A stretch of 64,000 nucleotides of DNA, from positions 32,001 through 96,000 of the IMG/VR virus record IMGVR_UViG_3300020050_016625, one strand, 5' to 3'. Both the position numbers and the translations under genes were made by a program. The notes below the pieces were generated by a model. It was given only the letters and a program-made list of their open reading frames with translations, had not been told where the DNA came from and searched no databases. This DNA is from a virus. Its lineage: Duplodnaviria > Caudoviricetes. How positions within the stretch are numbered: the stretch's first letter is position 1; the number at the start of each line of letters is the position of its first letter. Of this stretch, positions 11,705 to 55,351 are shown in pieces.

Positions 11705-12060
11705 AAATATATTATATTCGGGCTGCTAACGGGTTTTAATCCAAACGCTCGCCTTCTTCTATCATAGATTTTTCCACATTATTACCAATAACTATATGCA
11801 ACAAACAAGAGCTGCACCGTAGTATAAAAAAATATCTCTTACAAGACCACGTGTTAAAAGTTGTGGCAACAAATAGAATCAGGCTATTAGCAAGTGCCTT
11901 TAAGTAGTAAAATAAACGCCCACAGAAGCGAAATTTTGTGTAGAAACTAATGTAGATAAATAACTTTACTATTCATATTATATATAAAACGCTACATTTT
12001 ACAAATTGTAGCGTTTTTTTATTTGTAAAATTGTAAACAATTTTCATATTTTTGTGTTAT

Positions 12061-13385: not shown

Positions 13386-13422
13386 AAAAAGCCCGTTAAA
13401 ATTGACTTTAACGGGCTTTTTT
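13386..13422. terminator. Bidirectional intrinsic terminator
   Basis: AAAAAGCCCGTTAAA-attgac-TTTAACGGGCTTTTT. Confidence 0.85.
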
Positions 13423-16400
13423 TATTTAATCCTTTGTTGCGTAAACGCCTGTTGCTGTATTGTATTCAAAACTATGCCATCTATACCTGTATTTTGAATG
13501 ATAACAGTCATTTGGGTATTAATTACGGGTTCACTACCGCTAATGCCACCAAGCCCCATTGGGCTATTATTTGTTGCGCCTACATTCCCACTTGAAAGTG
13601 TTTGGTTTGCATTTGGCGTACTACTCGTACTACTTTTTGGGCTATTATTTGTTGCGCCTACATTCCCACTTGAAAGTGTTTGGTTTGCATTTGGCGTACT
13701 ACTCGTACTACTTTTTGACTTATTACCTACACTACCTAATAGACTACCAGCAAGACCGCTCGCCCCTAATAAAGCCAAACCACCTACTAATAATGGTATC
13801 ATAACGGGCAATGATGCAGGAAAAGTAGCTATGTTTGCAGGAGAAAATGCAGCCTGTACCAATCCCATTCCTATAACCTTTGGTATTTCTACTAAGATAG
13901 TTTTACCTAATGAAATTAACGCCTGTTCTAATACATCTTCAAAAGAAGCAACACCCATAATCATATCGCCTATACCTTTGCTAAACATTTCTGCTGTCTG
14001 CCCTAATCCTTGCCCTAATGATTGAAATGCTTGGTTCTTAATTTCCTTAAATGTTTCAGTCAATGTCTCCGCAGCATCAATAGATTGTATTTTGGTTGCG
14101 CCCATTGCCTCAAAAAATGCAGATAAAGAAGCCGTACTGCTTGTTATTGAATTATTGACTGCATCAAAACTTCCCACAATATCTGTACCTATATTTGGAA
14201 TAGAGGGGATTGTGAAATCTGTATCATTTGAAGGCATAAGACTTTGTGGCGCAATAGTCTTACCTACTACTTGACTACCTATTGTTTCCCCAAAACTTAC
14301 GCCCTCAAAAGATTTTTCAAAAGATTTTATTTGGTTCTCTAAACTACTAACATCTAATTTTAATTTAAGATTAGTTTCAATATCACTGCTTGCTTTTAAT
14401 TCAGATAACTGCTTTTTAAGTTCCGTTAATTTATCTAATTCAGGCTGTGATAGAATTTTAACTATATTACCCTTTGCAACATTTTCAAAAATAGTAACTA
14501 TATCTTTTGCTTTATTTTCAGATTCTTTTAGCGATGTGATATAAATTTGAAGGTTTTTTAAATGTTCAAAATCTGCGCCTGTTTGTGGTGTATCTAATTC
14601 ATTAATCTTTTTTTGAACTTCTGAAATTTCATTACCTAATCCTGTAATAGAATTAAATGCAGGTACATTGCCTAATTCTATGTTAAGTAATTTTATTTGA
14701 TTATTAAGCAATTCTATTTCATAGCGTACATTTGCAGTTTCCGCACTTCCTAATGATTGTTTTTGAAGTTTCTCATTTAATACAGAAAGTTCAAAATTAT
14801 AAGATTCTAAACTTTTAGGATTAAATTCTAAACGCTTAATATTATTTTGAAACTCTTTTATTTGAGCATTTAAGGATACACTTTGCATTACAAGCGAAGG
14901 AATTAAGCCGCTATTTGGTGCTTGCTTATTGATTTGATTATTAATAATCTGTATTTGAAAATTCAAATCATTAATACTACCTTTTACGTTCTCAAATGCC
15001 TTAATCCTATTTTGAAGTGCCTCAATTTCATCTTTAAATTTAACAACCCCTTGCGCTAATTTATCAAAAGTACTACTACTTGCACTGGTTTCACGTAATT
15101 TAGATTCCATTTGCGACAAACGTAGCTGCAAACCTTCTAAACTATTACTATTTGTGGACATTAAAGCAAGCCTATCATTTATAGCCTTTAATTGCTTTTC
15201 AAGTGCAATAGATTCTTTTGCAACTGCCGCAAATGCGCCGCTACCTGCGCCAACTTTATTTAGCCTGTCTTTTGCATCTGTTAAACTTTGTGAAATAGCC
15301 CCTATACTACCTGCTGCAAATTCTGCGGCAGGTGGTATTTTAGTAGCAGCAGTTGTAACAGCATCTCCAACAAAACCCCATGTATCTAATACAGCTTTAC
15401 CCTCCGCAGAAAGTTGCGATAAATCCGTTTCAGTTAATGTAGTTAAGCCTCTTTCAAGTTGTGTATAAGACTCCTCTACTTTTCTATAATTATCATTTAT
15501 TTCTTGCGTTTTTTTCTCAACCTTACCTAAACCCTGTAATACATCTACCCCCATTGTAAGGATAGGAAAATTTGCATACATAGTTGATTTTATCGCAGTG
15601 CTGTAAGGCGATGTATTGTCTTGCGTGCCTGCCTTAGCTTTACTTTTCTCTTTTTCAGAAGCCGTTTCAAGCAAATCAAAACTCTTAACAACAACCTTTA
15701 CACCTGCCGCTAAATTAGAAAAACTTTCTGCAACTCCATTTACCCAATTCTTAAATCCATCTGTTTGTGTTAGTTGTACAATACCATTGATTAAATCGGT
15801 AATAGTAATTACAACTTCTTTTGCTAATGGTAATAACGCTTGACCTAATTGCGCCCCTAAAATCTGAAAACTATCCTGCATTGAAGACCATAAACCTTCA
15901 AATGTATTTGATTGTGTTTTCATCATTTCAAAGAATTTACCACCGCTACTTGTCATATTAATTAAAGCAGCATCTATTTCTTTAAAACCTATTTTACCTG
16001 CACTTGCAAGTTTCTTTATTTCTGCTTCTGGCTTACCTAATACCTTCGCAAGCTCCTCGATAATTGGTACACCTGCATTAATAAATTGAGATAAATCGCC
16101 AGCCATTGCTTTGCCTTGCGCCTTAATTTGCCCATACGCATAAACAATTGAAGGTAATTTTTCCCTACCTACACCTGCCGCAACGTCCCCTATCCTACTT
16201 AAACGATTAGTTACATCGTCAATAGGTATCCCCATTGCAAGTAACTTTGTCCCCTGTTCCGCAACATCATCAAAATTAAAAGGGCTTGTACTTGCAAGCG
16301 TTTGAAACTGTTGAAATAATTTACCACCTGCGGCTGTACTGCCTGTAATTACATCTAAACTTGCACGTAAACTCTCAAATTGCGCTGCACTATTTATTGC

Positions 16401-16940
16401 AAATTTCCCTACATCGAATATTGCTTTTCCGATTTGGGCCGCCCCTGCTACGATTGCGCCACCTGTAACAGCACCTAACAACATGCCTTTAAAGTCTGTT
16501 GCTTCTCTAATTGCACCACCAAAAGCACCTTTTAACTTTTCCGTAAAAGACTCTTTTGAGACTGCACCCATTTCTACCCTTAAATCTTTAAGGCGTTCTC
16601 TTACCTTTATTATATAGGTAGCATCGCCACCCGAAAATTGTTTTTGTAATTTAGTCAATTCTTTTTGTAACTCCCCTACATTTGCAGTCGCTAAACTGAA
16701 TGATTTTGTAGGTATGGGGCTTTCAGGGATTTTAGGCATTTTAATTCCTGAAAATCCCTTATTTAGGTCGCCTACTAACTTATTGATATTTTTAAGCATT
16801 TCTGCCTGATTCCCTAATGACAAATCAGGAATTTTAATAGATGCAAATGCACTATTTGTAGCAGACACTAATTTTGATGTTTGGGCTATCCAAGCATCAA
16901 CCCCTGTCATCTGCACGCTAAATAATATATCTTCTGCCAT
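13422..16940 (-). CDS. Tail tape measure protein
   Basis: 1172 aa; tape-measure domain (AAQFESLRASLDVITGS..SPFNF..GDVAAG..YGQIKAQGK..NAGVPI..LAKVLG) plus coiled coils; follows tail chaperones. Confidence 0.92.
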   Translation of the reverse strand: MAEDILFSVQMTGVDAWIAQTSKLVSATNSAFASIKIPDLSLGNQAEMLKNINKLVGDLNKGFSGIKMPKIPESPIPTKSFSLATANVGELQKELTKLQKQFSGGDATYIIKVRERLKDLRVEMGAVSKESFTEKLKGAFGGAIREATDFKGMLLGAVTGGAIVAGAAQIGKAIFDVGKFAINSAAQFESLRASLDVITGSTAAGGKLFQQFQTLASTSPFNFDDVAEQGTKLLAMGIPIDDVTNRLSRIGDVAAGVGREKLPSIVYAYGQIKAQGKAMAGDLSQFINAGVPIIEELAKVLGKPEAEIKKLASAGKIGFKEIDAALINMTSSGGKFFEMMKTQSNTFEGLWSSMQDSFQILGAQLGQALLPLAKEVVITITDLINGIVQLTQTDGFKNWVNGVAESFSNLAAGVKVVVKSFDLLETASEKEKSKAKAGTQDNTSPYSTAIKSTMYANFPILTMGVDVLQGLGKVEKKTQEINDNYRKVEESYTQLERGLTTLTETDLSQLSAEGKAVLDTWGFVGDAVTTAATKIPPAAEFAAGSIGAISQSLTDAKDRLNKVGAGSGAFAAVAKESIALEKQLKAINDRLALMSTNSNSLEGLQLRLSQMESKLRETSASSSTFDKLAQGVVKFKDEIEALQNRIKAFENVKGSINDLNFQIQIINNQINKQAPNSGLIPSLVMQSVSLNAQIKEFQNNIKRLEFNPKSLESYNFELSVLNEKLQKQSLGSAETANVRYEIELLNNQIKLLNIELGNVPAFNSITGLGNEISEVQKKINELDTPQTGADFEHLKNLQIYITSLKESENKAKDIVTIFENVAKGNIVKILSQPELDKLTELKKQLSELKASSDIETNLKLKLDVSSLENQIKSFEKSFEGVSFGETIGSQVVGKTIAPQSLMPSNDTDFTIPSIPNIGTDIVGSFDAVNNSITSSTASLSAFFEAMGATKIQSIDAAETLTETFKEIKNQAFQSLGQGLGQTAEMFSKGIGDMIMGVASFEDVLEQALISLGKTILVEIPKVIGMGLVQAAFSPANIATFPASLPVMIPLLVGGLALLGASGLAGSLLGSVGNKSKSSTSSTPNANQTLSSGNVGATNNSPKSSTSSTPNANQTLSSGNVGATNNSPMGLGGISGSEPVINTQMTVIIQNTGIDGIVLNTIQQQAFTQQRIK
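13560..13717. repeat. Perfect 2 x 78-bp tandem duplication in the tape measure C-terminus
   Basis: 13560-13639 identical to 13638-13717; encodes KSSTSSTPNANQTLSSGNVGATNNSP twice. Confidence 0.95.
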
Positions 16941-20052: not shown

Positions 20053-20114
20053 GCGCAAAAATATAGTGCTTGCTTGTACATTGTACAACTTACAAGCAAT
20101 AGCTATAATTTTGC
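20053..20114. promoter_or_regulatory. Divergent TAnnTTTG promoter pair (tail operon / BspA-1), late-promoter candidate
   Basis: CAAAAATATAGTGCTT (minus TATTTTTG) and TAATTTTG on plus; same 16-mer at 62152; homologous copy at 21498-21560. Confidence 0.65.
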
Positions 20115-20127
20115 ATTAAAAAATACC

Positions 20128-21477
20128 ATATTTCAATTTATTAGATTTACAAATAGGCTGCTTAGATACCTAACAAGTGTCGATATAAGCAATATTATGG
20201 CAAATATGCAAGCCACATACTTTGATGACTTGCCTTTTAGTGAGGATAATAGGGTAGTATATTGCTTTCCAAAGGAATTAGCATTGCAAATATCTGGTAT
20301 AGAAACAGCCGCTTTGGTAGGACTTGCTACAAAGAATGGTAATTTTGAAACCCTTAGCGCAATTGGTACGCCTAACAATGCAGAAATAAAAACCTTTAAC
20401 TTCGGAAATAAGCGAATTGAGGCTGTAATGTTTGATACAGCCCCTTTGAGTGCTTTTCAAATAGAGTTTAGCCATTCAAATTACGATACTTTATCTGCAT
20501 TTTCAGATTATATTAAGCCTAAATTAGCAAGTGGGAATAGTACCGTAATAAATAATTTCTCCTCAAATGGAAATATAGTTTATTTCGATTTAGCTGCAAA
20601 TACTTCTATCCCATCAAGTGCTTTTGGGGAAACCGCAGACGTTATTAATGTTATTGATAGTGCAGGGCAAATAACGGCAATAGGTGATTATTGCTTTGAT
20701 AGTTCTTATATTGTTAGCGTAAATCTTCCTTCTGTAACTGAAATTCCTGTTGGTGCTTTTTCATATTGCGATAGACTAACAGATGCAACTTTTGGTGCTG
20801 TAACGGATATTAATACTACTGCATTTGCGTATTGTACAGCCCTACAAACACCTACTTTTTTCAATACAGTAGTTACAATAGGTGCGGAGGCTTTTTTGAA
20901 TTGCACTACGATTGATTATGCAGTTTGTCCTTTACTTGAAACGGCGGGCGCAAGTGCCTTTAAAGGTTGTACTACATTAGAAGGTTTCGCATTTGATGTA
21001 TTGCAGGTGTTTGAAAATAATGTATTTGAGGATTGTACTGCATTGTTTGAACCTACGGCTGATAGCATAATAGAAATTAAACATAGTGCATTTAAGGGCT
21101 GTACAAGTGCAAACGTTTTTCCGTTTGATATGGCACAAAATATTGGCGATTCTGCATTTGAAGGCTGTATTTCATTAGATAACGCACACTACACAGCCGC
21201 AAGTGCAATAGGCGCAAGGGCTTTTCATAATTGTAGTGCCTTAGAAGTGATTAATATTGAAGCTGCTACATCGGTGGGAAATAATTGCTTTGATGGGTGT
21301 ACAAGTTGTACGCAAATACGCATGAACTCCGTAACATCTTGTGGTAATAATTCTAATAACAATAGCGTATTTGATAATATGACTTACGTAGGATTAGCGG
21401 TTTATATTAATAGTGCTATTGCTTCTGATTTAGATATAACTCAAATACAATCAGCAGGGGCAAATGTGTTTTATTAA
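20128..21477 (+). CDS. BspA-type leucine-rich repeat protein (paralogue 1)
   Basis: Repeats of IGxxAFxxCxxL; shared N-terminal domain; start uncertain (ATA 20128 by homology, ATG 20197). Confidence 0.88.
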   Translation: MFQFIRFTNRLLRYLTSVDISNIMANMQATYFDDLPFSEDNRVVYCFPKELALQISGIETAALVGLATKNGNFETLSAIGTPNNAEIKTFNFGNKRIEAVMFDTAPLSAFQIEFSHSNYDTLSAFSDYIKPKLASGNSTVINNFSSNGNIVYFDLAANTSIPSSAFGETADVINVIDSAGQITAIGDYCFDSSYIVSVNLPSVTEIPVGAFSYCDRLTDATFGAVTDINTTAFAYCTALQTPTFFNTVVTIGAEAFLNCTTIDYAVCPLLETAGASAFKGCTTLEGFAFDVLQVFENNVFEDCTALFEPTADSIIEIKHSAFKGCTSANVFPFDMAQNIGDSAFEGCISLDNAHYTAASAIGARAFHNCSALEVINIEAATSVGNNCFDGCTSCTQIRMNSVTSCGNNSNNNSVFDNMTYVGLAVYINSAIASDLDITQIQSAGANVFY

Positions 21478-21576
21478 TAGAATAATGTAAAAATAAACGC
21501 AAAAGATATATTGCTTATATGTGCGTTGTACAACTTGCAAGCAATAGATATACTTTTGTATAAAAAATATAATACT

Positions 21577-22935
21577 ATGCAATTTTCAAGATTTGTTGAT
21601 AGGGCTATTAGGTATGTAGGGCATGTTCCAGTTGCTGACTACCTCGAAAGAATGAGAGATGTTTATGACGAGGATTTACCCTTAGACGAGAATAATAGAG
21701 TGCTTTACTTTTTTCCGCAGGAAAAAGCACTTGAATTAGGCGGTAAGTCTGATAGTGTATTAGTAGGATTTGCTTCAAAAAATGGTAAATTTGAACGACT
21801 ATCAAATTTAGGTACGCCTAATGAGGGTGAAATAAAAACAATGCGAATAAATAGAAAAACTATTGAAACAGTATTGTTTACGCCCTCTTATACAGAAGGC
21901 GCAATTTACATGTCATTCACAAGTGGCGATTATAGTACACAATCTGCATTTGAGGCTTACATAAAACCAAAACTCAATTCTGGTAATGAGGCTGTTATAA
22001 TGAATTTTAGTAGCGAGAGTAATATGATAGCCTTTAATTTACAACGTCCTACTGGCTTTAGGGTAAATGCCTTTTTGAATGATACGGAAGTAATTGAAAT
22101 AGTTGATTGGGCGGGACAAATACAGTCATTAGGCGAAAATTGCTTTAGAAATGCAACATCGCTAACTGGAACATTACTACCAAGTCTTACATCTATTCCA
22201 AAGAACGGATTTTTAGATTGTACTAACTTTGTAAATAACTATTTTGGCGAAAATTTAATATCATTAGGCGACAATGCTTTTAAAAACTGTATAGGCTTTA
22301 TTCCTTCTCCAAGTTTCGGAAAAACAGCAACTATTGGCGTTTCTGCATTTGAAGGCTGTAATGCAATAGAAACAATAAATATGCCTAATTTGGTCAAAAT
22401 GGGTGCAAGGGCATTTAAGGATTGCGGCGCTTTACTTTCTGTTGAATTTGAATCATTACCAACTATTAGCGAAAGTGCATTTGAGGGTTGCATATTGCTT
22501 GAAACCGCTAATGTAGTGAACGCAATTACTACACAGAAGAATTGCTTTAAAAATTGCTATGACTTGCACGTTATAAACATGGCTAATTTGGAAAATGTAG
22601 CGGAATCTGCTTTTGAAGGTTGTAGTTCTATGACTGCTTTTGATTTTACGGTTGCTTTAACGGCAGGTGTAAACGCATTTAAACGCTGTACATCTGTTAC
22701 TAATGTAGATTTACAAAATGCCACAAGTATAGGTAATAGTTGTTTTGAAGGCTGTACTGCCGCAACCTTAATCACTATTTGGGCTGCTACTACATTAGGC
22801 ACAACGACCGCAAACAATAGGGTTTTTTACGGTTGCACTTATTCAGGATTAAGGATAAATATAAATAGTTCTATTCAAAACGATAGCGATATTTTAGATG
22901 CGCAAGCAGGGGGCGCAAATATCGTAATAGACTAA
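21577..22935 (+). CDS. BspA-type leucine-rich repeat protein (paralogue 2)
   Basis: LRR_5-type repeats; ATG 21577 (MQFSRF). Confidence 0.9.
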   Translation: MQFSRFVDRAIRYVGHVPVADYLERMRDVYDEDLPLDENNRVLYFFPQEKALELGGKSDSVLVGFASKNGKFERLSNLGTPNEGEIKTMRINRKTIETVLFTPSYTEGAIYMSFTSGDYSTQSAFEAYIKPKLNSGNEAVIMNFSSESNMIAFNLQRPTGFRVNAFLNDTEVIEIVDWAGQIQSLGENCFRNATSLTGTLLPSLTSIPKNGFLDCTNFVNNYFGENLISLGDNAFKNCIGFIPSPSFGKTATIGVSAFEGCNAIETINMPNLVKMGARAFKDCGALLSVEFESLPTISESAFEGCILLETANVVNAITTQKNCFKNCYDLHVINMANLENVAESAFEGCSSMTAFDFTVALTAGVNAFKRCTSVTNVDLQNATSIGNSCFEGCTAATLITIWAATTLGTTTANNRVFYGCTYSGLRININSSIQNDSDILDAQAGGANIVID

Positions 22936-30282: not shown

Positions 30283-30336
30283 ATAATTATATTTATAGTA
30301 GTAGTACCTTATCTATAAGGTACTACTACTTGATTG

Positions 30337-31842
30337 TTACACTACAATATTTGCTCCTGCAAATTGAGAATCTGTAATATCTAAGTCCGTAAGGATAGTT
30401 GTATTAACATAAATAGTTAGGTCAGATAAAACACAGCCTAAAAACACGCCGTCATTACCTGTTGTACTACCACATGTTGCCGCTAAATTACTAATATTTA
30501 CATTCAAAAGAGCAGAGCAATTTTTAAAAGCACTATCCCCTAAAGTAATAGCATTTGGCAAATTTGCATCAGTTAAACTCAAACAACCCTCAAATGCGTT
30601 TCGATTCACATCTAATGCAAATTGCAAGGTAATTGTTTCTAATGCCTCACAATCAGTAAAGCAATAATCACCCACTAATCCAATAGGGCTTAAATTTAAA
30701 ATGCTGAATATGTCCATGCTTGCACATAAAATACAGCCCATAAAACACTCCGTACCTGCACTATTTAATTTAGGGAATAAAAATGATGTAATTGCCTCGC
30801 AACCATAAAAACACCTATATCCTGCTAACTGTAAAGAATGTATATCAATAGTTGTTGCACTTGTACAGCCCTCAAATGTACTATTTCCACAAGATGTAGC
30901 AGATGGGAGAGTAAAGGTTGTAGCACTTGTACAGCCAGAAAACACATTATCTTGCAACGTAAGTGCGTTATTAAATTTAAATGATGTACAAGACGAGCAG
31001 TCCTTAAAGGTTGCATTAGGAATATTTGTCAATAGCGGCAAATCAAAAGAAGTAACAGATGAACAGCCCGAAAAAGAACCTTCGCCTACTTGTGTACAAT
31101 TTAAAAAACTAATCGCTATTAAATTGGTACAGTTTTGAAATGCAAAAGCACCCATTTCTGTTAGTGCTATTAAGCTGGCAGATGTAAGAGAAGCGCAACC
31201 CATAAAGCTCTCTTGCCCTAAAATAGTACACCCAGAGAATGTTACTTCTGTAACTACCGAGTTTTTGAAAGACTTATCTCCTAATGCTACTATTTTTGAA
31301 GAACTATCACTTACTTTTAGAACTTCTGTATCGTCCGAAAAAGCACTTGCATTTATTGAGATATTATTAAGTACATCAAATCGTACAGTATTTGTAACTA
31401 CTGAAAAGTTTATAATATCAGAAATACTTGATAAAGTGGAAACCCTTGTACTTATAAAATTATAAAAAGCCTGCTTAGTATTATAAGCATTGGTATTAAA
31501 CTCAATAACTATACCGCCCACAGGAATAGGTGAAAACAGAACAGCCTCAAATGTATTATTACCTACACTTACGTTTACAATTTCGCCACCATTAGGAACG
31601 CCTATACCGCTAAGCTCGTCAAACTCTCCATTATGATTTGCAATACCAATCAATGCGCTATCTGTAACGCCACCAACATCATCTACAATTTGCTTTGGAA
31701 AGAAATATGCCACCTTATTTTCAGTATCAAGTGGTAAATCTACGTTGTAGGTATTTACCATTTCATCAAAGTAAGATAATGCAAGCATTTCGCCTATATA
31801 ATAGGACGCTCGTTCTATAAATCTGTATAAGTAGTTTGCCAT
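30337..31842 (-). CDS. BspA-type leucine-rich repeat protein (paralogue 3)
   Basis: LRR_5-type repeats; same N-terminal domain and GANI C-cap as paralogues 1 and 2; start ATG 31842. Confidence 0.9.
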   Translation of the reverse strand: MANYLYRFIERASYYIGEMLALSYFDEMVNTYNVDLPLDTENKVAYFFPKQIVDDVGGVTDSALIGIANHNGEFDELSGIGVPNGGEIVNVSVGNNTFEAVLFSPIPVGGIVIEFNTNAYNTKQAFYNFISTRVSTLSSISDIINFSVVTNTVRFDVLNNISINASAFSDDTEVLKVSDSSSKIVALGDKSFKNSVVTEVTFSGCTILGQESFMGCASLTSASLIALTEMGAFAFQNCTNLIAISFLNCTQVGEGSFSGCSSVTSFDLPLLTNIPNATFKDCSSCTSFKFNNALTLQDNVFSGCTSATTFTLPSATSCGNSTFEGCTSATTIDIHSLQLAGYRCFYGCEAITSFLFPKLNSAGTECFMGCILCASMDIFSILNLSPIGLVGDYCFTDCEALETITLQFALDVNRNAFEGCLSLTDANLPNAITLGDSAFKNCSALLNVNISNLAATCGSTTGNDGVFLGCVLSDLTIYVNTTILTDLDITDSQFAGANIVV

Positions 31843-31893
31843 ATATACGATATTTTTCTGCAAAGTTATACCTTATATATGTAAGTCGCTATA

Positions 31894-41145: not shown

Positions 41146-42024
41146 ATGATTGATACTACATTGATTAACGGTATTTTTATTAAGATATGTAATAAATATC
41201 TTAGCACACAAATGGGATTAAGGCTTAAAAATAAGCAGGTAGTGAGTGTAAGTAACATGCGTTTGCATAAAAACACATGTTTTGACAATACTATCCTTAA
41301 TATCATTTCGGGTGGTAAATCTTTCAGTGTAAAGAAAAGCACACTTTTAGACGATTCTTTTTTCAGCACATATAAGGCATTTGAAAAAGAGTTTTTAGGC
41401 TTAAAAGCAATTGCTGACGATAAGGCACATGAAATATTCAAGGCTTATCTTGTAGATATAAAAGCCTGTAATATAGAGATAGCAGAAATTAACATAGGAT
41501 ACTATAATGCTATGTGTAATGATATTTCAGGTTGTAAAGAAGGTTTATTTTTTAATCATTTCTCAAGTATTTATGAGATTGAATGGCAAGCCCTTTTTCC
41601 TATTTTTGGAAAATGTGCGCTTGCACATATTCAAGATATGAGAAATATTGAAGTACATAATTTATATGGAGCAATATTTAAAGTGGAATCGTTTAAGCAA
41701 AAAATAAGTTCACTTACTTTATTGGACAATGCAGCTGTTATAGATACATGCAATGTGCAGTTATATTCAAATAGTCATACTATTGTAGTGAACGCATCTG
41801 AATTTTTCTATTATCATACAAATCCTTTTTTCGAAGAATACAGGGCTGCATTAGAAAAAAGCGATACTATTATGAGAAAGTATTTTCTTGCATATAATTT
41901 CAAAAAGGATAAAATAGAATTAATTAAGTCTATTTATAAAAATAATGAGAAATTAATATGTATTGATTTTGAGGCAAAAGTAACAGAACTTATTTACACT
42001 AAATTTATTTCATTGTTAGGTTAA
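41146..42024 (+). CDS. Hypothetical protein (related to 49699..50520)
   Basis: Start after class II promoter at 41104; LDDSFFSTYK versus IEDSSYFDFY. Confidence 0.6.
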   Translation: MIDTTLINGIFIKICNKYLSTQMGLRLKNKQVVSVSNMRLHKNTCFDNTILNIISGGKSFSVKKSTLLDDSFFSTYKAFEKEFLGLKAIADDKAHEIFKAYLVDIKACNIEIAEINIGYYNAMCNDISGCKEGLFFNHFSSIYEIEWQALFPIFGKCALAHIQDMRNIEVHNLYGAIFKVESFKQKISSLTLLDNAAVIDTCNVQLYSNSHTIVVNASEFFYYHTNPFFEEYRAALEKSDTIMRKYFLAYNFKKDKIELIKSIYKNNEKLICIDFEAKVTELIYTKFISLLG

Positions 42025-42040
42025 AAATAAAAACTACATT

Positions 42041-42652
42041 ATGGAAAACGAATTTGATATTGGACTCGGCAATATAACTTGTATATTTTCTGAAAAAATG
42101 CAAAAGTTAGTAGATTATAGAGATAATTTCAAATATGAAACGCCACATAAAAAGCCATTTTTATTTGATTTTACTTATTTTGGGAATCAAGACTGCCCAC
42201 ATGTACTAAATAATGAGGCTTTAGAGATAGTGAAAGATAAGATAGAAAAGTTTGAATCGGTTATTATTTTGTTGAAAGTAAATAACAGGAATAAGAGAGG
42301 CTTGGATAATTTAATTGAAAGCATTAGCAAAATACTGAATAATAAAAGTGCTGTATTGTTTTTATGTAATCCTTTTGATGGCTTACAATCACTGTTTAAA
42401 GACATATACAACTTGGATAAAGAAATATCTAATTCAAGTATGGAATATTCAGGCTTAAAGCCATATATGTCAAGTATTGATATGAAAAGCCCTTTATACT
42501 TAAAGGTTATGAATGATTATAGTTACACAGAAATTGCAAAGATGTTAGATATAACAGTGCCTTCTGTAAAGAATAAGCTATACTGCCAAAAAAGAAGATT
42601 AATAAATCAAATAATTAAAAATAACGATGAAAAAGGTGCAATTAGTGAATAA
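42041..42652 (+). CDS. Protein with C-terminal ECF-sigma-like region 4 HTH
   Basis: LYLKVMNDYSYTEIAKMLDITVPSVKNKLYCQKRRL matches the sigma70 r4_2 pattern; region 2 not recognisable. Confidence 0.6.
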   Translation: MENEFDIGLGNITCIFSEKMQKLVDYRDNFKYETPHKKPFLFDFTYFGNQDCPHVLNNEALEIVKDKIEKFESVIILLKVNNRNKRGLDNLIESISKILNNKSAVLFLCNPFDGLQSLFKDIYNLDKEISNSSMEYSGLKPYMSSIDMKSPLYLKVMNDYSYTEIAKMLDITVPSVKNKLYCQKRRLINQIIKNNDEKGAISE

Positions 42653-42962
42653 TACAGATAGTACAAACACAAACTATCTACGTTCCCGTTTAGCGCAAAT
42701 TAGGGCTAAACACAATGATAAGAGAATCATTATTGATAACCTGCATTTTTACAGCATGGGGCGCAAATATGCAGATATTGAAACGATTACAAACGCTGTG
42801 ATAAATTTCAATAAACAGGGCAGCTATATTTTCTTTGCATCTATTTCGCCTAATACAGTGCAACCTGAAATAGATGATATTAGGGCAAAGGTAGGCGAAA
42901 TAGTAAACGATGATAGCATGGTTATGCTTGTTATTATCGGTGGCAATAAAGACTTAAAATAA
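42627..42962 (+). CDS. Hypothetical protein, weak resemblance to a DnaB helicase fragment
   Basis: LRSRLAQIRAKHNDKRIIIDNLH. Confidence 0.4.
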   Translation: MKKVQLVNNTDSTNTNYLRSRLAQIRAKHNDKRIIIDNLHFYSMGRKYADIETITNAVINFNKQGSYIFFASISPNTVQPEIDDIRAKVGEIVNDDSMVMLVIIGGNKDLK

Positions 42963-42970
42963 CCACATAT

Positions 42971-43756
42971 ATGCGTAAATGGGAAAACGAAAAGGAGACA
43001 TACCTAATTGATAATTTTCATAAAAAGCCTATTTCTGAAATAGCAGCCGTAATAAATAAAACAGATGCAGCAGTAAAAACAAAGGCTTTAAAATTAGGTT
43101 TGAAAAAGGATAACAAGCACATTTGGACTGAAAAGGAAATATCCTATTTGAAGGCTAATTATGAGAATGAGAGAATAGAAGTTTTGTGCAATTATTTAGG
43201 TTTAACAATAGGGCAAATTTACCACAAGGCAAATTTTTTAGGCTTAAAAAAATCTAAGGAACTTATTGCGCAAATGGCAAAGGAAAATATTTCAAGTAGC
43301 TTCTTATCTCATTCAAAGAAAAAGGGCGATATACCACATAATAAAGGCGTTCAAATGAGTGCAGATGTTTATGAGAGAGTAAAGCATACTATGTTTAAAA
43401 AGGGTAACAAGCCCCCAAATACAAAGGAAAATGGTTTTCTTTCTACACGCAATAGCAAGGGTTTTAAAAGTATTTATGTCAGGATAGAACTAAGTAAGTG
43501 GATTCCTTTGTCAAGGTATTTATGGGAAAAGGAATACGGCACAATACCAAGTGGGCATGTAGTTTCATTCATAGATGGAAATTGGCAAAATTGCACACTT
43601 GAAAACTTAAAACTATTGTCAAGAGCAGAAAACATGGAAAGAAATTCTTTTCATAGATACCCAAAAGAGATTCGTAATTTAATATCATTAAGGGCTGTAA
43701 TAAGCCGTAAAATCAATAAATTTTCAAAATGGAAAACAAAATCAGCGCAACAATAG
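42971..43756 (+). CDS. HNH endonuclease with N-terminal Myb-like repeats
   Basis: WxxxExxYLxxN[FY] twice; FKKG; LWEKEYGTIPSGHVVSFIDGNWQNCTLENL..LSRAENM. Confidence 0.85.
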   Translation: MRKWENEKETYLIDNFHKKPISEIAAVINKTDAAVKTKALKLGLKKDNKHIWTEKEISYLKANYENERIEVLCNYLGLTIGQIYHKANFLGLKKSKELIAQMAKENISSSFLSHSKKKGDIPHNKGVQMSADVYERVKHTMFKKGNKPPNTKENGFLSTRNSKGFKSIYVRIELSKWIPLSRYLWEKEYGTIPSGHVVSFIDGNWQNCTLENLKLLSRAENMERNSFHRYPKEIRNLISLRAVISRKINKFSKWKTKSAQQ

Positions 43757-44028
43757 GAATTGATGCCGTTCTTTCACAAATGATGCAAACGATTCAGTCG
43801 TTAAATAATCTTGAGCCACAAGATGTAAAGCCAGAAGTCTTGCAATCGGAGGTAGAAAAAGCCAAAACGCTAAATTCTCTTTATGCTACATACGCAAATT
43901 TCGCTATTGCGGAAGTGAAATTTCACGACTTGTGTCTGAAAAGAGATGAACTTGTTTCAAAAGGCGATTTTATAGAACAAATAGCTAAACGGAAAATTCA
44001 AAGCAACTTTTTCAAAAGTTTGGAATAA
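43729..44028 (+). CDS. Hypothetical protein coupled to HNH
   Basis: Overlapping ORF. Confidence 0.6.
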   Translation: MENKISATIGIDAVLSQMMQTIQSLNNLEPQDVKPEVLQSEVEKAKTLNSLYATYANFAIAEVKFHDLCLKRDELVSKGDFIEQIAKRKIQSNFFKSLE

Positions 44029-44099
44029 TTTTCATTTATCACAACCTTTTGCGATTAAATACGTAAAAGGTTGTATAATTATTAATCAAATTTTATTTT

Positions 44100-44792
44100 A
44101 TGGCAAAGACAATTCAAGACTATGTCGCATGTGGCGATATACGTAGCGCAATTAATGCACTACCCGATAGTTTAAGTAGCGAGAAAATCATAATTTATGC
44201 CCGATTTTCTGAATTAGAAAAAAGTGTACGCATGGGCGTTATTAGTGATTCTAATGAGAAAATGGAACGTAATAAGATTGCGTATGCTGTTTTATCTTAC
44301 GGCAAAGATGCAAGTTTAGTTAGCGAAGACTACACGCCCGAAAAACCACAGGAAAAAGAAGCTATCAAAACGCAAACCTTAATGAATATCATTAAAGAAA
44401 ACAGAAGGCGTAGGGCTGAATACTGTTACAGGATAGAAACATTTCTTACAGATTATCAAGAGTACACAAAAAACAAGGCTACCATGCCCACATTTGACCC
44501 TGCTGGGCGTAGATATAAGGCATTATTAACAACTTACAATGCTTTACTTGCGGAATTAGAGGAGAAAAAAGACGATGATTTAGAGGCTATTTTGGCAAAG
44601 GTAGATAGTTTACTTATTGCGGTTTGTCCTGAATATGAGCATTTGGAGGAGGCTTATAAATTGGTTTGCGGTCGTGGCTTTGTAGATAAGTGGATTGAGG
44701 CGCAACTGCAAAACAAAACAGATGATAAGGAAATACGTTATACTATTACAGAAAGAATAGAAGCGTATGCAGCAAGCATTAGAAAAGTGTAA
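44100..44792 (+). CDS. EAD11-like (effector-associated domain) protein with helical C-terminus
   Basis: IQDYVACGDIRSAINAL..EKIIIYARFSELEKSVRMGVISDSNEKMERNKIAYAVLS fits the EAD11 pattern. Confidence 0.7.
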   Translation: MAKTIQDYVACGDIRSAINALPDSLSSEKIIIYARFSELEKSVRMGVISDSNEKMERNKIAYAVLSYGKDASLVSEDYTPEKPQEKEAIKTQTLMNIIKENRRRRAEYCYRIETFLTDYQEYTKNKATMPTFDPAGRRYKALLTTYNALLAELEEKKDDDLEAILAKVDSLLIAVCPEYEHLEEAYKLVCGRGFVDKWIEAQLQNKTDDKEIRYTITERIEAYAASIRKV

Positions 44793-44885
44793 TTTATTTC
44801 TCACTAAGTACAACCTTTTATGCTACTATGCGTAAAAGGTTATATAATTTACAATCCAATACCGCCAAATAACAAACATTTACAC

Positions 44886-45251
44886 ATGCTAAAAGTTATC
44901 AAATGTAAAAACTATGCAAAGATATATGAAAATCTAATTGCCATATTTGAGGCTAATAAAGCGTTAGGCGATAATAAAAAGTTTTTCTTTGCAAACACTA
45001 CCTTATTTGATAAAAGCGAAATTACGCCATTATCGAAGGTTGTCGCTAACATAAATGAGAGATGTATAGAAAACTCAATTTATGTACACCAAGTAGAATG
45101 GGAAGGTAGTAGCAAATTTGTAGATTTTCAAAACAAACTTATTGCTATCCTTGAACCAAACTGCGATGTAATATTACTCACTCTATCAAATTCAAAAAAG
45201 TTTGATGCTTACGTAGAAAACGCCTATTTGTATTTAAACAATCCTACTTAG
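44886..45251 (+). CDS. Hypothetical protein
   Basis: Likely start MLKVIK after class I promoter at 44812-44834. Confidence 0.6.
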   Translation: MLKVIKCKNYAKIYENLIAIFEANKALGDNKKFFFANTTLFDKSEITPLSKVVANINERCIENSIYVHQVEWEGSSKFVDFQNKLIAILEPNCDVILLTLSNSKKFDAYVENAYLYLNNPT

Positions 45252-45319
45252 TAAGTCGTTATAAATACAAATGAAAAAAAATATTTTCACTTTTATTTGG
45301 TGGTTTGATAAATGTTACA

Positions 45320-45428
45320 TACCTTTGTGCATTGTCTCCCCAAAGCAGTAAATAAGGACTAACGCCTTCGGGCTTTTTTCATATAGGTAGTTACAAATCT
45401 TGGGGGAGACTTTGTAACTACTTTTTTT
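45320..45428 (+). promoter_or_regulatory. TACCTTTG promoter plus terminator/antiterminator leader
   Basis: GTCTCCCCAA (45334-43) complementary to TTGGGGGAGAC (45400-10) inside terminator GTAGTTACAAA..TTTGTAACTAC-T7. Confidence 0.65.
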
Positions 45429-46229
45429 ATGCAGCAAACGCAAATCAACATAAACGGCAAATTATATAACTCATGCTTTGAAAAAGGCGAGTTACGTAGT
45501 TTGGCGTTTTTTGTTTGTTTATCCGATTTGTTTACGCATAAAGTGTTTACTTCAAATGATATTGACTTAATCGCAGATAAATTAGGTAAGTCAAAACAAA
45601 CTATTTACAGGCTTATTGATAAATGTAGAAAATTAGGCTTAATTTCGTATGATTGTGCAAAATACGCACTCATGGCTAATTATAGTATTCATACAAAATT
45701 TGGCGGCAAATATACATTTTCATGCTATGTAAATAGAAATGTTTTAGACAATGGCTTTATAGCTGTTTATAATTTTCTGCGTACTATACCGATAATCTCA
45801 AATATTCGTAACCAAGTAAAAAGGATTAAGAAAAAGCAAGATTTAACTTACAAAATGGCACAATCGCAAAAAGATACTTATCTTAGCTACAAAGATGCTA
45901 AGGCTGTGAACAATGCGAAAAAACAAGGTTTTGACTTTAAATTTAATCCAAGTACAACGTTATCAATTTTGAAGGGTAGTGAAATAGCTAATATCTCAAA
46001 ACCTACTTTTTGCTTCTTAAAAAGAGAACTTGTTAAATTGAATATCTGTAACATCAAAAGAATTTACGAAACTGTTTTAGAGAATATCTCTTTTGATAAA
46101 TACATTTACATAATGAGTAAAGGAGAAGCTATTTTTGAATCTATGAATATCCCTTGTTATGCGAAATATGATAATGTAAAACAAGCTATTTATATTGACA
46201 AAGCAAGTGAGTTTATTTTACTTATATAG
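45429..46229 (+). CDS. HTH DNA-binding protein, possible replication initiator
   Basis: IDLIADKLGKSKQTIYRLIDKCRKLGLI. Confidence 0.55.
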   Translation: MQQTQININGKLYNSCFEKGELRSLAFFVCLSDLFTHKVFTSNDIDLIADKLGKSKQTIYRLIDKCRKLGLISYDCAKYALMANYSIHTKFGGKYTFSCYVNRNVLDNGFIAVYNFLRTIPIISNIRNQVKRIKKKQDLTYKMAQSQKDTYLSYKDAKAVNNAKKQGFDFKFNPSTTLSILKGSEIANISKPTFCFLKRELVKLNICNIKRIYETVLENISFDKYIYIMSKGEAIFESMNIPCYAKYDNVKQAIYIDKASEFILLI

Positions 46230-46445
46230 TTATATACACTATAACACAATATAATATTTTGGCATAAGTGCCATAGAAGTATCAAAAAAATGAGAATGAT
46301 AAGAAAGTGTTTAAATTAAACATTTAGGGATAGCTATGTGTTATTATAAAAAAAACACCAAAGAATGAAACCTTATTTATTCACAGCCGTATAATAGGCA
46401 TGAATAAGAAACAATTTACAGAGCATCTCAATATTTTCCATTTAG

Positions 46446-46571
46446 GATAGTGCAAGGGAAGCAGCACTATCTTTGGGATTAAAGAAATACAGAATATTAG
46501 TAGTATCTAAAACGGAAAATGTAGGGAAATTATTTTGTGGTGGTTTTATATGGAAAAGACTACCAAAGTAA
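46446..46571 (+). pseudogene. NUMOD1-like remnant
   Basis: DSAREAALSLG..I...GGFIWK preceded by an in-frame TAG, no start. Confidence 0.4.
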
Positions 46572-46623
46572 GCGTAAAAAGCCTTAAATCTAAACAATTT
46601 AGGGCTTTTTTGGTTATTTATAT

Positions 46624-49623
46624 ATGAAATACAGCATATTAAACGAAACTATCCCAAAAAACCAACGTGCCGAAATAAACAAACAATGTTTATCTTTGGT
46701 ACGTACAAATAACCTGCAAGGCTTAACACCTAACGACATAGCAAATGCCTATACAGGTATAGGCGGTTTGCATGAATTAAATTTCAAAGACTTTACTTCT
46801 TATAATGCTTATTCAACTGCAAAGAAGGAAATAGAAAACGGGCAGTTTCTTACACCTATGCAAGTGTGTAATGATATTGTAAAATTGCTACCAATTAAAA
46901 ATACAGATATTTGTGCAGATTTAACGTGTGGTATAGGACATTTCTTTAATCCCTTACCAAATGAATCAAACGTGTACGGCTGTGAATTAGATAACGATGC
47001 TTATACAATAGCAAAGTTTCTTTATCCAAACGCCAATATAGAAAATGCAGATATACGTAATTATACGCCAAACACAAAGTTTGATTATATCGTAGGCAAT
47101 CCTCCGTTCAATCTTTCATGGCAGATAGGGAGAGAAACACAAATAAGCCAAAATTATTTTACCTTCAAAGCAAGTAGCCTTTTGAAACCTGCTGGCATAT
47201 TAGCGTTTATTGCGCCCGAAACATGGCTAAATGATAGCATGTATTACAGCAACCTGCTTATCCAAATAAATAACGAATTTAGCTTTATAGGGCAATACCT
47301 TTTGCCTACAAATACCTTTGCGCAATATGGTACAGATAACTTTGCTACCAAAGTGTTATTTTTCGCAAAGAAAACAAAGCATATTGCAGCTAATGAGTAT
47401 ATCCCTACGTATAATACCTATTCAGAAATAAGCGAAAAAATAGGCGTTTATATGCGTTTAAAGGAAAAGGCAAAACATTTCATTCATAAAGAGTTTTTAG
47501 CCCAAAATGACATAAAGCAACATGAAATTGATAGGGTAAAAAAATACTTATATGAGATAAAAATACATGCTGTTTTGCAGCCGTTCTACAAAGAAGCGTT
47601 AAAGGCATATAATGACATGTTAAACCCTATTATGCCCGCTTGGATAGCAAATATTAAAGATTATGAGGAGCGTTATAAGGAATGGGAAAAACTACGTGTA
47701 ACTATGCCTAAACTTTTGCGTATGCTAAAACGCATAATCAAAAAACAATCTGCAAAACATGTTGATAAAATAGAGTGGGTAAAAATAAAGTCAGGCTATA
47801 AATTAAAGGCATACAGCCCGAAAATGCAAGCAAGTTTGAATAAGGAGAAATGTATTAAGCTATACATTACAAATGACTGTATAGCAAACGGCATTACGCC
47901 CTTAATTCCTAAACATCTGTTAAAGTCATTTAACCGCAAATTAAACGACCTTAATAAAACATCTATACCGATAAAGCAAATAGAAAGAGATGCTTCTATT
48001 GATAAATATGTAAGTGAATTTAGCTTTTTAAATGCAAGCAATACACAATGCTTTTTTGCGGAAAAACAAAAACACGATATAGGGCTAATTATTCAAAGGG
48101 ATAGGTGTTTGCTTGCATGGCAGCAAGGTATAGGAAAAACGGCTGCTACTTATTGCTATGCGAAATATCATAACCAAAGAGTAAATTTTGTTTTGTCAAT
48201 TTCGATAAGTGTACATATCACTTGGCGCAACTTCTTTGAACAACAAAACGAAAGTTATGCCATTATCGAAAAGCGCAAAGATTTGCCTTTAATAATGACA
48301 AAAAAGAATATTGTCATTAGCTTGCAAATGCTTATCAAATACAAGAAAGAAATACGCAAATACATCAAACTGCTAAACAAGAAAGTTACGCTAATTTTTG
48401 ACGAGTCAGATACCATTACGAATAGAAATACAAAAAGCGCAAAGGCTGTATTTGATTGCTTCAAAGATGTAAGCAGAAAAGTTCTTGCAACAGGCACAAC
48501 GACACGTAACCGTATAAGTGAGTATTACCCACAATTAGAGTTGCTTTATAATAATAGTTACAACCTTCTTTGCACCTGCGAAACTATCTACGTAGAATCT
48601 AAGGACAAAAAAATACAGCCCAAAGTAAACGATTATTATAATATGCCTTTTGATGCAAAGCATGGAATGAGTTTATTTATTAAATGCTTTAATCCTACAA
48701 AAGCGACTGTATTTGGTGTACAAAGGGGCGACCAAAGTATTTACAATGAAAAGCATTTACGTAACTTAATCGAAAAAACCGTAATTTCAAGAAAGTTTAA
48801 GGACGTGGTAGGCGATAAATACACAATAGAAAATGTGTTGTTTTCGCAAAGTGCGGAGGAGAAGGAAATATACTTGGATTTAATTACAAATATTCACAAG
48901 TATATACCAAAGGAATTAAACAAAAAAGACAGAATGTTTAGGGCTTTAAAGCAGCTAAATTTGCTTTTAAAGGCTACATCTATGCCACAAGCGATAAAAG
49001 GAAATTTCGTACCTACAAAAGCCTACGAAATATTCGATAAGGTGCATGAATTTAGCGACAAAAAAGTAGCAATAGGGGTAGGTAGCCATGAATCTATACA
49101 CTACTACGAAATATGGCTAAAAGAACGTTTTGCAGATAGGGAGTTGTTTATCATTACAGGTAACGACAAAGCAACAAAAGGTAAAAAGCAAATTTGTTCA
49201 GATAGGGAGAAAATTATAAAGGATTTTGAAGCAACAGAAAATGGGATTTTACTTTGCATACAAGCGAGCTTGTCTGCTTCTGTGAATATTGGTAGCTGTG
49301 ATATTGTGTTGATTGAATATAAGCCGTACAATATACCAAAATTAGAACAGTTTATTTTTAGATTCATACGCTATGATTCGTTAAACAAAAAGAAAGTATT
49401 TATATTTTCTTACACAGATACAATAGAAATGAATTTATTAGCACTTCTTTTGGATAAGGAAAAAGCAAATGAATATGGGAAAACATTAGAGTATAAAACA
49501 ACAAATGAAATATTTGAAGACTTTAATGTGGAAACAAGCATTTTAGAAATGTTACTTTCAAAAGAAATAGATAGGGCAGGTAAAGTGTCTATTTCGTGGG
49601 GCGGTGGGCAGGTAGTTGAATAA
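46624..49623 (+). CDS. N6-adenine methyltransferase-SNF2 helicase fusion (DarB-like architecture)
   Basis: GQFLTP, DLTCGIG, VGNPPF; QQGIGKT, IFDESD, LATGT, EQFIFRFIR. Confidence 0.88.
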   Translation: MKYSILNETIPKNQRAEINKQCLSLVRTNNLQGLTPNDIANAYTGIGGLHELNFKDFTSYNAYSTAKKEIENGQFLTPMQVCNDIVKLLPIKNTDICADLTCGIGHFFNPLPNESNVYGCELDNDAYTIAKFLYPNANIENADIRNYTPNTKFDYIVGNPPFNLSWQIGRETQISQNYFTFKASSLLKPAGILAFIAPETWLNDSMYYSNLLIQINNEFSFIGQYLLPTNTFAQYGTDNFATKVLFFAKKTKHIAANEYIPTYNTYSEISEKIGVYMRLKEKAKHFIHKEFLAQNDIKQHEIDRVKKYLYEIKIHAVLQPFYKEALKAYNDMLNPIMPAWIANIKDYEERYKEWEKLRVTMPKLLRMLKRIIKKQSAKHVDKIEWVKIKSGYKLKAYSPKMQASLNKEKCIKLYITNDCIANGITPLIPKHLLKSFNRKLNDLNKTSIPIKQIERDASIDKYVSEFSFLNASNTQCFFAEKQKHDIGLIIQRDRCLLAWQQGIGKTAATYCYAKYHNQRVNFVLSISISVHITWRNFFEQQNESYAIIEKRKDLPLIMTKKNIVISLQMLIKYKKEIRKYIKLLNKKVTLIFDESDTITNRNTKSAKAVFDCFKDVSRKVLATGTTTRNRISEYYPQLELLYNNSYNLLCTCETIYVESKDKKIQPKVNDYYNMPFDAKHGMSLFIKCFNPTKATVFGVQRGDQSIYNEKHLRNLIEKTVISRKFKDVVGDKYTIENVLFSQSAEEKEIYLDLITNIHKYIPKELNKKDRMFRALKQLNLLLKATSMPQAIKGNFVPTKAYEIFDKVHEFSDKKVAIGVGSHESIHYYEIWLKERFADRELFIITGNDKATKGKKQICSDREKIIKDFEATENGILLCIQASLSASVNIGSCDIVLIEYKPYNIPKLEQFIFRFIRYDSLNKKKVFIFSYTDTIEMNLLALLLDKEKANEYGKTLEYKTTNEIFEDFNVETSILEMLLSKEIDRAGKVSISWGGGQVVE

Positions 49624-54005: not shown

Positions 54006-55351
54006 TGTAGTTCGTAATACCATAGAAAACTATGTCATTACTTTATAGTCAAAACTATTGGGCTAACTACTAAGCCCTCTACACCATTGTTAAAAACGTT
54101 TGATGCTACCTTTTTAAGTATCTGCAAAGAACCATTCAAGTCTGCATTAATAACCTTACCGCTACTACTTTTAAACAACCCCCTTTTTACCCTGCGACCT
54201 TTGTATTTATCCTTTTTAGTAGGACTTTCTTTGTCAAGAAAACTTGTTTTTGAAGTATATGATTCTTCTGTTTTAATGACTGAAATACCTTGTAAGTCGC
54301 ATTTGTATTGCAACATATCAATAGCCTTTGCAAATGGAATTTGCGTAAAATTTTGGTTATTCTTTACACCTATATTTATCCCTTGTTTCCATTCTTTATT
54401 ATATCCTACTATTAAAGTAGTTATATCATTTGAAACTAAGTGGCTAACAACCTTAGATGTGGCTTTATGCAAATAATCGCTAATTTTCCTATTCCTTTTT
54501 GCAGTAAGTTTACTTAATTTTTTACTATTCTTTCTGTTTTCTCCAAATTGTTTATTTAACTTTTCTTGTATATCTGCCTTCTTTTTATTGTAATACTGAT
54601 TCATTGATTTTAAGGGTTTGCCGTTTATGATTATAGGGCTTATTATATTACTACCAATAGTCATAAAGTTGTTTACCCCAAAATCAATAGCACAGTATCT
54701 ATTATTATTTTCTTTCTTTTCTACATTTTCAACTCTATATACAACCTCAATAAAATAGGTCTTATCCTTATTTGGAATAACTCTTATTTCATTTATATTT
54801 TGCTTTTTGGTTATTACACTAATGTTTGTTCCTGATAACTTATTTCCTTTATTTATCGCTTGCTTATTGTAAATCAATATAAACCTACCCTTTTCTTTAT
54901 GTTTGAATTTTGGCTGTTTCGGAAGTCCTTTGAATTTACTTGCATCTTTCTTGTATGCCTTTAACGCTGCAAAATATGCTTTATAGGATTTATCAAGTTT
55001 TATCAATACCTGCTGACTGACTTTTCTTGGTAATGCAGTAAAACATTCATGGTCTTTCATTAGGTTAATCATATCAAAACCACCTAAATACTTATTACCA
55101 TTTTTGTGATTTTCCCTTAGTATATACAAAGCACTATTATATAGATTTTTAGCCTTAAATGCTAAACTATCTATTTCCTTGTAAATTATGTTACTTGGTT
55201 TTATTAAGTGCTTTTCTACTAATTGCATGTTAGCCTTAAACTATTTTAGTTTTTATTCGTTATCTATCATACAAATATACGAAAATTAATTTTCAATACC
55301 AAACTTTTCTGTAAAATTCTATTGAAAATTATTAACTTTACTCATACATGT
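54006..55351 (-). mobile_element. Non-autonomous IS200/IS605-superfamily (IS1341-like) element
   Basis: tnpB only; 12-bp subterminal inverted repeat 55287-98/55320-31; splits a gene; ends approximate. Confidence 0.75.
54038..55228 (-). CDS. tnpB: RNA-guided endonuclease TnpB
   Basis: MQLVEKH..AKNLYNSALY; AIDFGVNN; DYLHKA; EESYTSK; RVKRGLF; INADLNGS. Confidence 0.93.
   Translation of the reverse strand: MQLVEKHLIKPSNIIYKEIDSLAFKAKNLYNSALYILRENHKNGNKYLGGFDMINLMKDHECFTALPRKVSQQVLIKLDKSYKAYFAALKAYKKDASKFKGLPKQPKFKHKEKGRFILIYNKQAINKGNKLSGTNISVITKKQNINEIRVIPNKDKTYFIEVVYRVENVEKKENNNRYCAIDFGVNNFMTIGSNIISPIIINGKPLKSMNQYYNKKKADIQEKLNKQFGENRKNSKKLSKLTAKRNRKISDYLHKATSKVVSHLVSNDITTLIVGYNKEWKQGINIGVKNNQNFTQIPFAKAIDMLQYKCDLQGISVIKTEESYTSKTSFLDKESPTKKDKYKGRRVKRGLFKSSSGKVINADLNGSLQILKKVASNVFNNGVEGLVVSPIVLTIK

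Follow-up and report, generated by a model that had tools for sequence, protein, structure and literature searches.

A single phage gene, bracketed by two copies of a stem-loop and promoter-like element, encodes a 230-residue protein in which an effector-associated domain of the EAD11 type is fused to an all-helical C-terminal domain seen so far in phages alone. This occurrence of a known adaptor domain in a phage-restricted two-domain architecture appears to be new. We tentatively favour the reading that the protein is a counter-defence adaptor mimic, to which the conserved C-terminal domain would add a second activity, and we infer that it binds host EAD11 proteins and inhibits them.

The DNA analysed here (the window) is a stretch of 64,000 nt corresponding to bases 32001-96000 of a linear IMG/VR virus record of 134,863 bases, with a completeness of 88% by CheckV, and its source is clearly a phage as judged by its predicted genes (Table 1), a large one of wastewater or freshwater origin. 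The 999-residue fusion of an N6-methylase and an SNF2 helicase, which lies 1.8 kb downstream of the EAD11 gene, also touches models for DarB-like antirestriction, mad2 and BrxHII, and proteins from Tenacibaculum phages and uncultured faecal phages share 36-38% identity with it. The phage also encodes an HNH endonuclease, and a search of it for a tyrosine integrase found none. The EAD11 gene itself sits in a predicted early region among DNA-metabolism genes, a context typical of lytic takeover.

Table 1. Features of the window discussed in the text, with positions counted from its first base.
Feature	Position	Strand	Remarks
Tape measure protein	13422-16940		1,172 aa
BspA-type LRR_5 protein	20074-21477	+	in tandem with the next
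BspA-type LRR_5 protein	21511-22935	+	in tandem with the preceding
BspA-type LRR_5 protein	30337-31863	-	third of three
Sigma-70 region-4 protein	42041-42652	+	203 aa; 26.8 bits
Promoter-like stem-loop, copy 1	44041-44079	+	TATAAT at 44074-44079, 20 nt before ATG
Segment absent from a related contig	44051-44830		780 nt; gene plus one stem-loop copy
ORF P0001	44100-44792	+	230 aa; EAD11, linker and phage-specific C-terminal domain
EAD11 domain	44106-44297	+	aa 3-66 (Pfam PF19964); helices 5-74 (AlphaFold2 model)
Variable linker	44322-44369	+	aa 75-90; low model confidence; length differs among relatives
Conserved C-terminal domain	44370-44777	+	aa 91-226; all-helical; from conservation and models
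Promoter-like stem-loop, copy 2	44809-44848	+	TATAAT at 44843-44848
Downstream ORF	44886-45251	+	no family match
N6-methylase and SNF2 helicase fusion	46624-49623	+	999 aa; matches phrog_24008 end to end
TnpB/IS605 OrfB-type gene	54038-55228	-	OrfB_IS605 and Cas12f1-like TNB

The EAD11 ORF (P0001) begins at 44100; position 44041, which an earlier note on this DNA had given as the start, is where the upstream stem-loop begins. That note also recognised an EAD11 pattern in the first ~70 residues and a helical remainder with no visible enzyme motif, and both descriptions agree with what we find. Residues 3-66 align with positions 4-74 of the 80-position Pfam profile PF19964 (E-value 4.4e-10, 39.8 bits), for which the curated gathering cut-off is 26 bits, and when the complete virus record was searched in six frames the same match, at 40.7 bits, was the one EAD11 in its 134,863 bases. 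An AlphaFold2 model computed from a 72-sequence alignment (pLDDT 94.1) is all-helical, with four helices in the EAD11 unit (residues 5-10, 14-19, 23-45 and 50-74; pLDDT above 90) and six in the C-terminal domain at residues 91-226. The C-terminal domain has no Pfam family and no enzyme motif, and its PHROG comparison gave a weak match of unknown function and no informative one. No PADLOC-DB 2.0 model matched the protein at E<=1e-3, and the Pfam, PADLOC and fold searches found no effector, signalling or core-switch domain fused to its EAD11. A complex prediction with two copies of the protein (score 0.00, mark 0.42) gave no verdict either way.

The search for phage-borne homologues that had been proposed as a check was productive. 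An exhaustive phmmer search over 1.84 billion representatives identified at least 111 related clusters at 50% identity, 78 of them at E<=1e-10. Most members are 216-263 residues long and align end to end, and all 72 aligned full-length members match EAD11 (best E-value 3.7e-18), as do outliers of odd length. Neither the 111 matches nor a search of longer proteins revealed any other Pfam-recognised N-terminal partner for the C-terminal domain, the search of longer proteins yielding as its sole match a 261-residue family member. Two relatives (P0107 and P0112) have unusual N-termini; in one of them two EAD11 stretches precede the C-terminal domain, and in the other a 119-residue N-terminus without a Pfam match does so. 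A further relative on a 1.85-kb JGI contig (P0002) is a fragment identical to residues 45-212 that continues into a different 16-residue tail; it is possibly a variant from which a frameshift or recombination has removed the last helix.

All six family contexts that are long enough to judge, on contigs of at least 19 kb, are phage-like. Besides the record studied here (134.9 kb, with its tape measure and methylase-helicase), these are L002 (37.9 kb), which encodes a dCMP deaminase, PAPS reductases and RNase T; L007 (50.6 kb, the longest contig on record for this protein being 77.6 kb), with a Gp23 capsid protein, an SNF2 helicase and a GIY-YIG gene; L010 (101.6 kb), where a DNA methylase follows the family gene immediately and DnaB, a T4 RNA ligase and an RNR with an intein are also encoded; L011 (47.4 kb), which again has a methylase immediately after the gene, besides an LPD1 polyvalent protein and two genes of endolysin type; and L012 (19.4 kb), which has small ORFs only. 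The L002 homologue (7681-8418, 50% identical) has an EAD11 frame that is open upstream of the called TTG start, and this upstream frame holds no ATG, GTG or TTG, pointing to a non-canonical start or else to an error in the assembly. Searches with tblastn of 50,697 isolate phage records using P0001, P0058 and P0013 gave no match or noise only, plasmids gave noise only, and peptide-pattern scans of IMG/VR with P0001 and P0058 recovered no relative, the alignments being too divergent for that method. So far as these contigs tell, the gene is not a one-off capture but belongs to a sizeable family, found to date on phage contigs only.

The gene is enclosed by two closely similar regulatory-type elements. 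Copy 1 has a 13-bp stem (ACAACCTTTTGCG/CGTAAAAGGTTGT) followed by TATAAT, and over both copies the stem length is 12-13 bp. The core AACCTTTT-N14-AAAAGGTT occurs just twice in the 134.9-kb record, and these two occurrences bracket the EAD11 gene. The two copies are themselves examples of a promoter-like motif that recurs in this phage, AACYTT..GCGTW.AAG..TAYAAT, present on the plus strand at 40203, 44043, 44812, 50521 and 50965; a looser form has 7 occurrences against 0.16 expected, and the perfect long stem is restricted to the two motif copies around the EAD11 gene. The gene had been described as having its own class I promoter, and this is a fair description of a predicted element that combines a stem-loop and TATAAT before the ATG and forms part of a recurrent motif. 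Copy 2 probably drives the next ORF, the start of which is probably the internal ATG at 44886 because the ATG at 44820 sits within the stem-loop. The recurrent motif may be read by the sigma-70 region-4 protein, as a transcription factor of the phage. Other composites of a stem-loop and TATAAT, with unrelated stems, are found at 30286-30331 (minus strand), 11977-12017 (minus strand) and 20069-20109 (plus strand).

Contigs from four wastewater and freshwater metagenome runs were aligned to positions 42000-47000, and the flanks of related-phage contigs are mostly 90-99% identical to the reference. In one of these contigs, 608 nt long and with a depth of 9.4 (run X4, record 28), position 44050 is joined to 44831 with 11 other letters between them, and there is a single stem-loop and no EAD11 gene. 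Other contigs leave the reference at 44080, just after the promoter, or at 44168, inside the EAD11 region, and their diverging sequence past these points still translates like the family N-terminus. There is also a 6-nt insertion at 44344, in the linker, in a related contig. The segment 44171-44838 mostly has little or no cover at 85% likeness in the four runs, which is a lead towards allele divergence. The contig without the gene and the presence of other alleles indicate that the gene is accessory and exchangeable.

This arrangement recalls the promoter-early stem-loop (PeSL) cassettes of T4-type phages (Arbiol et al. 2010, PMC2839356; Comeau et al. 2014, PMC4122927). As with PeSLs, a composite of promoter and stem-loop lies on both sides of a non-essential and variable ORF, the presence/absence breakpoints fall inside the motif, and a relative that lacks the ORF retains one copy, the outcome to be expected from recombination between the copies. 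The differences are that the phage group and the motif are other ones, and that the exact stem occurs only twice here, in elements whose promoter and terminator roles are putative.

Cellular EAD11 domains have a markedly uneven distribution and a characteristic set of partners. Among 401 sampled genomes of Bacteroidota at large, five have EAD11 above the cut-off, whereas one Bacteroidota family has it in 39 of 61 genomes, a single genome holding as many as 32 matches. The architectures include TIR_2-EAD11, EAD11-CHAT, Roc-COR-EAD11-CHAT and short EAD11-only proteins, together with a response regulator-PG_binding-EAD11-TIR arrangement and four cases of SIR2_2-EAD11, one of which adjoins an nSTAND1 NTPase. 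At one cellular locus (L045 / L037, G352:C8) SIR2-EAD11 adjoins an nSTAND1 NTPase and EAD11-CHAT lies about 1.8 kb off, forming a compact EAD11-wired module that is a possible test system. The attachment of EAD11 to TIR_2, SIR2_2, CHAT and Roc-COR-CHAT, and its position beside nSTAND1, fit the 'EAD principle' of NTP-dependent conflict systems (Kaur, Burroughs, Iyer and Aravind, eLife 2020, PMC7159879; 2021, PMC8195603). The phage domain resembles these cellular EAD11s (PF19964) in that its ~70 N-terminal residues score above the curated threshold and are small, helical, non-enzymatic and terminally placed, but it differs in being phage-encoded, in its fusion to a phage-only non-enzymatic domain, and in having no second EAD11 in the genome. 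A profile of the C-terminal domain (A3) gave no match in the 401 Bacteroidota genomes or in the 61 of the EAD11-rich family; as a positive control the same profile scored 217 bits on the phage itself.

The earlier note took the EAD11 domain as a hint of the host group, and the evidence on this is divided. The concentration of EAD11 in one Bacteroidota family speaks for it, as does the finding that Shine-Dalgarno-like motifs precede 3 of 51 starts in the window against a background of 9.8%; such motifs are not expected to be enriched before starts in Bacteroidota, and their lack of enrichment suits a host from this group. Against it, the phage EAD11 is only 35-38% identical to the best cellular EAD11s. 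Members of the phage family are 20-43% identical to each other, and since the cellular matches fall within this range there is no sign of recent capture and the host cannot be read from identity. Assignment of the host through the phage TnpB was also tried and rejected: its relatives come from groups as diverse as Bacilli, Lachnospiraceae, Bacteroidia and archaea, and none is more than 49% identical.

With one EAD11 in the phage record, a homotypic partner must be host-encoded, or the protein itself. The combination of an immune adaptor without an enzyme, the lack of a phage-encoded partner, an optional cassette in the early region close to genes of anti-restriction type, and a phage-only domain leads us to suggest that the protein engages host EAD11 proteins. 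It would be made early in infection and would dock through homotypic EAD11-EAD11 contacts on host EAD11 proteins, namely effectors of the TIR, SIR2 and CHAT types and the STAND or Roc-COR switches that belong to them, such that the effectors are uncoupled from their sensors; the C-terminal domain could then cap, oligomerise, sequester (possibly on DNA) or directly inhibit the bound partner. Blocking the coupling of effector and sensor would be the simplest outcome, and we put it forward provisionally. The neighbourhoods have something of a counter-defence flavour, with the DarB-like methylase-helicase here and the methylases downstream in L010 and L011. Among the points against adaptor mimicry, EADs that work together are reportedly closer to each other than to the EADs of other genomes (PMC7159879), and the best cellular EAD11 is distant at the identities given above.

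The dominant-negative mimic put forward in the earlier note survives in part. The EAD11 is genuine, there is no enzyme and no second phage EAD11, and the cassette is optional, but the protein is not a bare decoy, having a conserved phage-only domain obligately attached. The accompanying parallel with viral death-domain decoys is an analogy. The vFLIP DED-only and poxviral PYD-only proteins are adaptor-only viral inhibitors of animal cell-death signalling, and the proposed likeness is that in both cases a virus would carry the homotypic adaptor of its host without an enzyme and so block assembly. This likeness is one of logic alone: the EAD11 model has four helices and not the six of the Death fold, and there is an additional conserved domain. 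A fold search with residues 1-81 placed generic helical hairpins in its top rows (Z up to 8.2), and the Death, CARD, PYD and DED families were absent from the lists.

The C-terminal domain is the better conserved of the two parts, with a mean pairwise identity within the family of 31.8% compared with 26.7% for the EAD11 part. Its identity exceeds that of the EAD11 part in 75% of pairs, and the two parts are nearly uncorrelated (r = 0.18). Faster divergence of the EAD11 part is expected if it tracks differing host adaptors; conserved positions within this part include A17, R35, G46, I60 and L65. Conserved motifs of the C-terminal domain are N-x-R-R-R, F-D-P-x-G-R-R and E-A-Y-x-L-x-x-G-R-G, and the strongly conserved polar residues are R103, D133, R137, D209 and E221; D133 is invariant across the family, and R103, P177, A185 and E221 are present in at least 90% of members. 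The obligate attachment of a phage-only domain of ~140 residues that is more conserved than EAD11 points to a probable second activity, and the main job of the protein may lie in this domain and be unrelated to host EAD networks.

Searches with the whole model and with the C-terminal domain alone (Foldseek against PDB and BFVD; VIA-align against 48,161 chains) gave nothing above helical background (best Z 8.0-8.2) and identified no known fold or pocket in the C-terminal domain, and the ESM Atlas gave no usable match for residues 88-230. HEPN-type helical domains (Csm6 and SO_3166; Z 6.2-6.9) appeared as weak rows and were rejected, the family having no R-x4-6-H motif.

A more specific candidate for the C-terminal domain is GapR/UPF0335 (PF10073), a DNA-binding nucleoid protein of alphaproteobacteria. 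A profile of eight C-terminal domain sequences run against PDB matched six distinct GapR/UPF0335 chains at E-values of 0.05-0.2, all in one register that aligns EAY..G.GF of the phage domain with EVY..G.GF of GapR. The likeness concerns the last ~70 residues of the domain and consists of E-x-Y-x-x-x-x-G-x-G-F in register and a conserved Asp after it. Five of 72 family members touch PF10073, all below threshold (best E-value 1.1e-3), hhalign aligns residues 160-208 to GapR with a probability of 51% (P 1.5e-4), and one family member is labelled 'UPF0335 family' by its source. P0001 itself does not match PF10073, and GapR neither comes up with the 72-sequence full-length profile nor appears in the structural match lists for the C-terminal domain. 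The differences are that all scores lie below threshold, that the basic DNA-contact stretch following the G.GF motif in GapR is not kept, and that the region forms part of a larger domain. On these comparisons we consider homology with GapR about evenly balanced, and rate a DNA-binding role of the domain lower.

These same matches, the conserved arginines of the C-terminal domain and the position of the gene among early and DNA-metabolism genes would suit a DNA-associated phage protein acting in nucleoid organisation, replication or transcription, with a GapR-like C-terminal domain and EAD11 helices that provide generic self-association and have no immune link. We regard this as rather unlikely. 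Apart from the sub-threshold standing of every GapR signal, its absence from the larger profile and the loss of the basic residues, a close relative can do without the gene, something rarely seen with a core DNA-handling factor, and a Pfam-grade EAD11 is retained in all 72 members although the domain is otherwise found here on immune-type proteins only.

A different use of the host network, which we consider quite improbable, would have the C-terminal domain sense a competing phage or the state of the cell and EAD11 recruit host effectors, either for superinfection exclusion or to turn those effectors to the benefit of the phage. An adaptor joined to a variable module would mirror the architecture of cellular EAD proteins, phage accessory cassettes often carry exclusion genes, and a single phage EAD11 would need host effectors here too; however, the C-terminal domain is constant where sensor modules vary, the lytic-type early context and the failure to find an integrase do not favour it, and to trigger TIR, SIR2 or CHAT suicide effectors in its own infection would be self-defeating. 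Least probable of all is that the C-terminal domain alone is the anti-defence element (for instance by binding an immune signal or inhibiting an unrelated host protein) and EAD11 a neutral stabilising or dimerising appendage, for although this domain is phage-only and the better conserved part, with its invariant Asp and near-invariant Arg, Pro, Ala and Glu, its obligate coupling to EAD11 and to no other Pfam-recognised N-terminal partner argues that EAD11 matters, and neither a pocket nor a known fold was identified in it.

A literature search found no published description of phage-encoded EAD proteins. To our knowledge, EAD-coupled conflict systems are known from comparative genomics alone and homotypic EAD binding is a computational proposal; we know of no demonstration so far that EADs bind each other or that they act in phage defence. 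A phage-restricted, enzyme-less and partnerless EAD11 family that is present in one phage and absent from its relative is a natural probe of these questions, and the C-terminal domain, with its invariant Asp and near-invariant Arg, is worth structural and biochemical study. If the phage protein binds and silences EAD11 effectors, the adaptor model would be validated, a new class of phage counter-defence would be defined, and the protein would mark bacteria that use an EAD11 network. It is possible, if doubtful, that the family extends this to a general 'adaptor plug' that disables all the EAD11-wired TIR, SIR2 and caspase-like effectors of filamentous Bacteroidota together, its C-terminal domain capping or sequestering the partners; were this so, it would be the first prokaryotic counterpart of the viral DED-only and PYD-only inhibitors and would for the first time make the EAD principle accessible to experiment.
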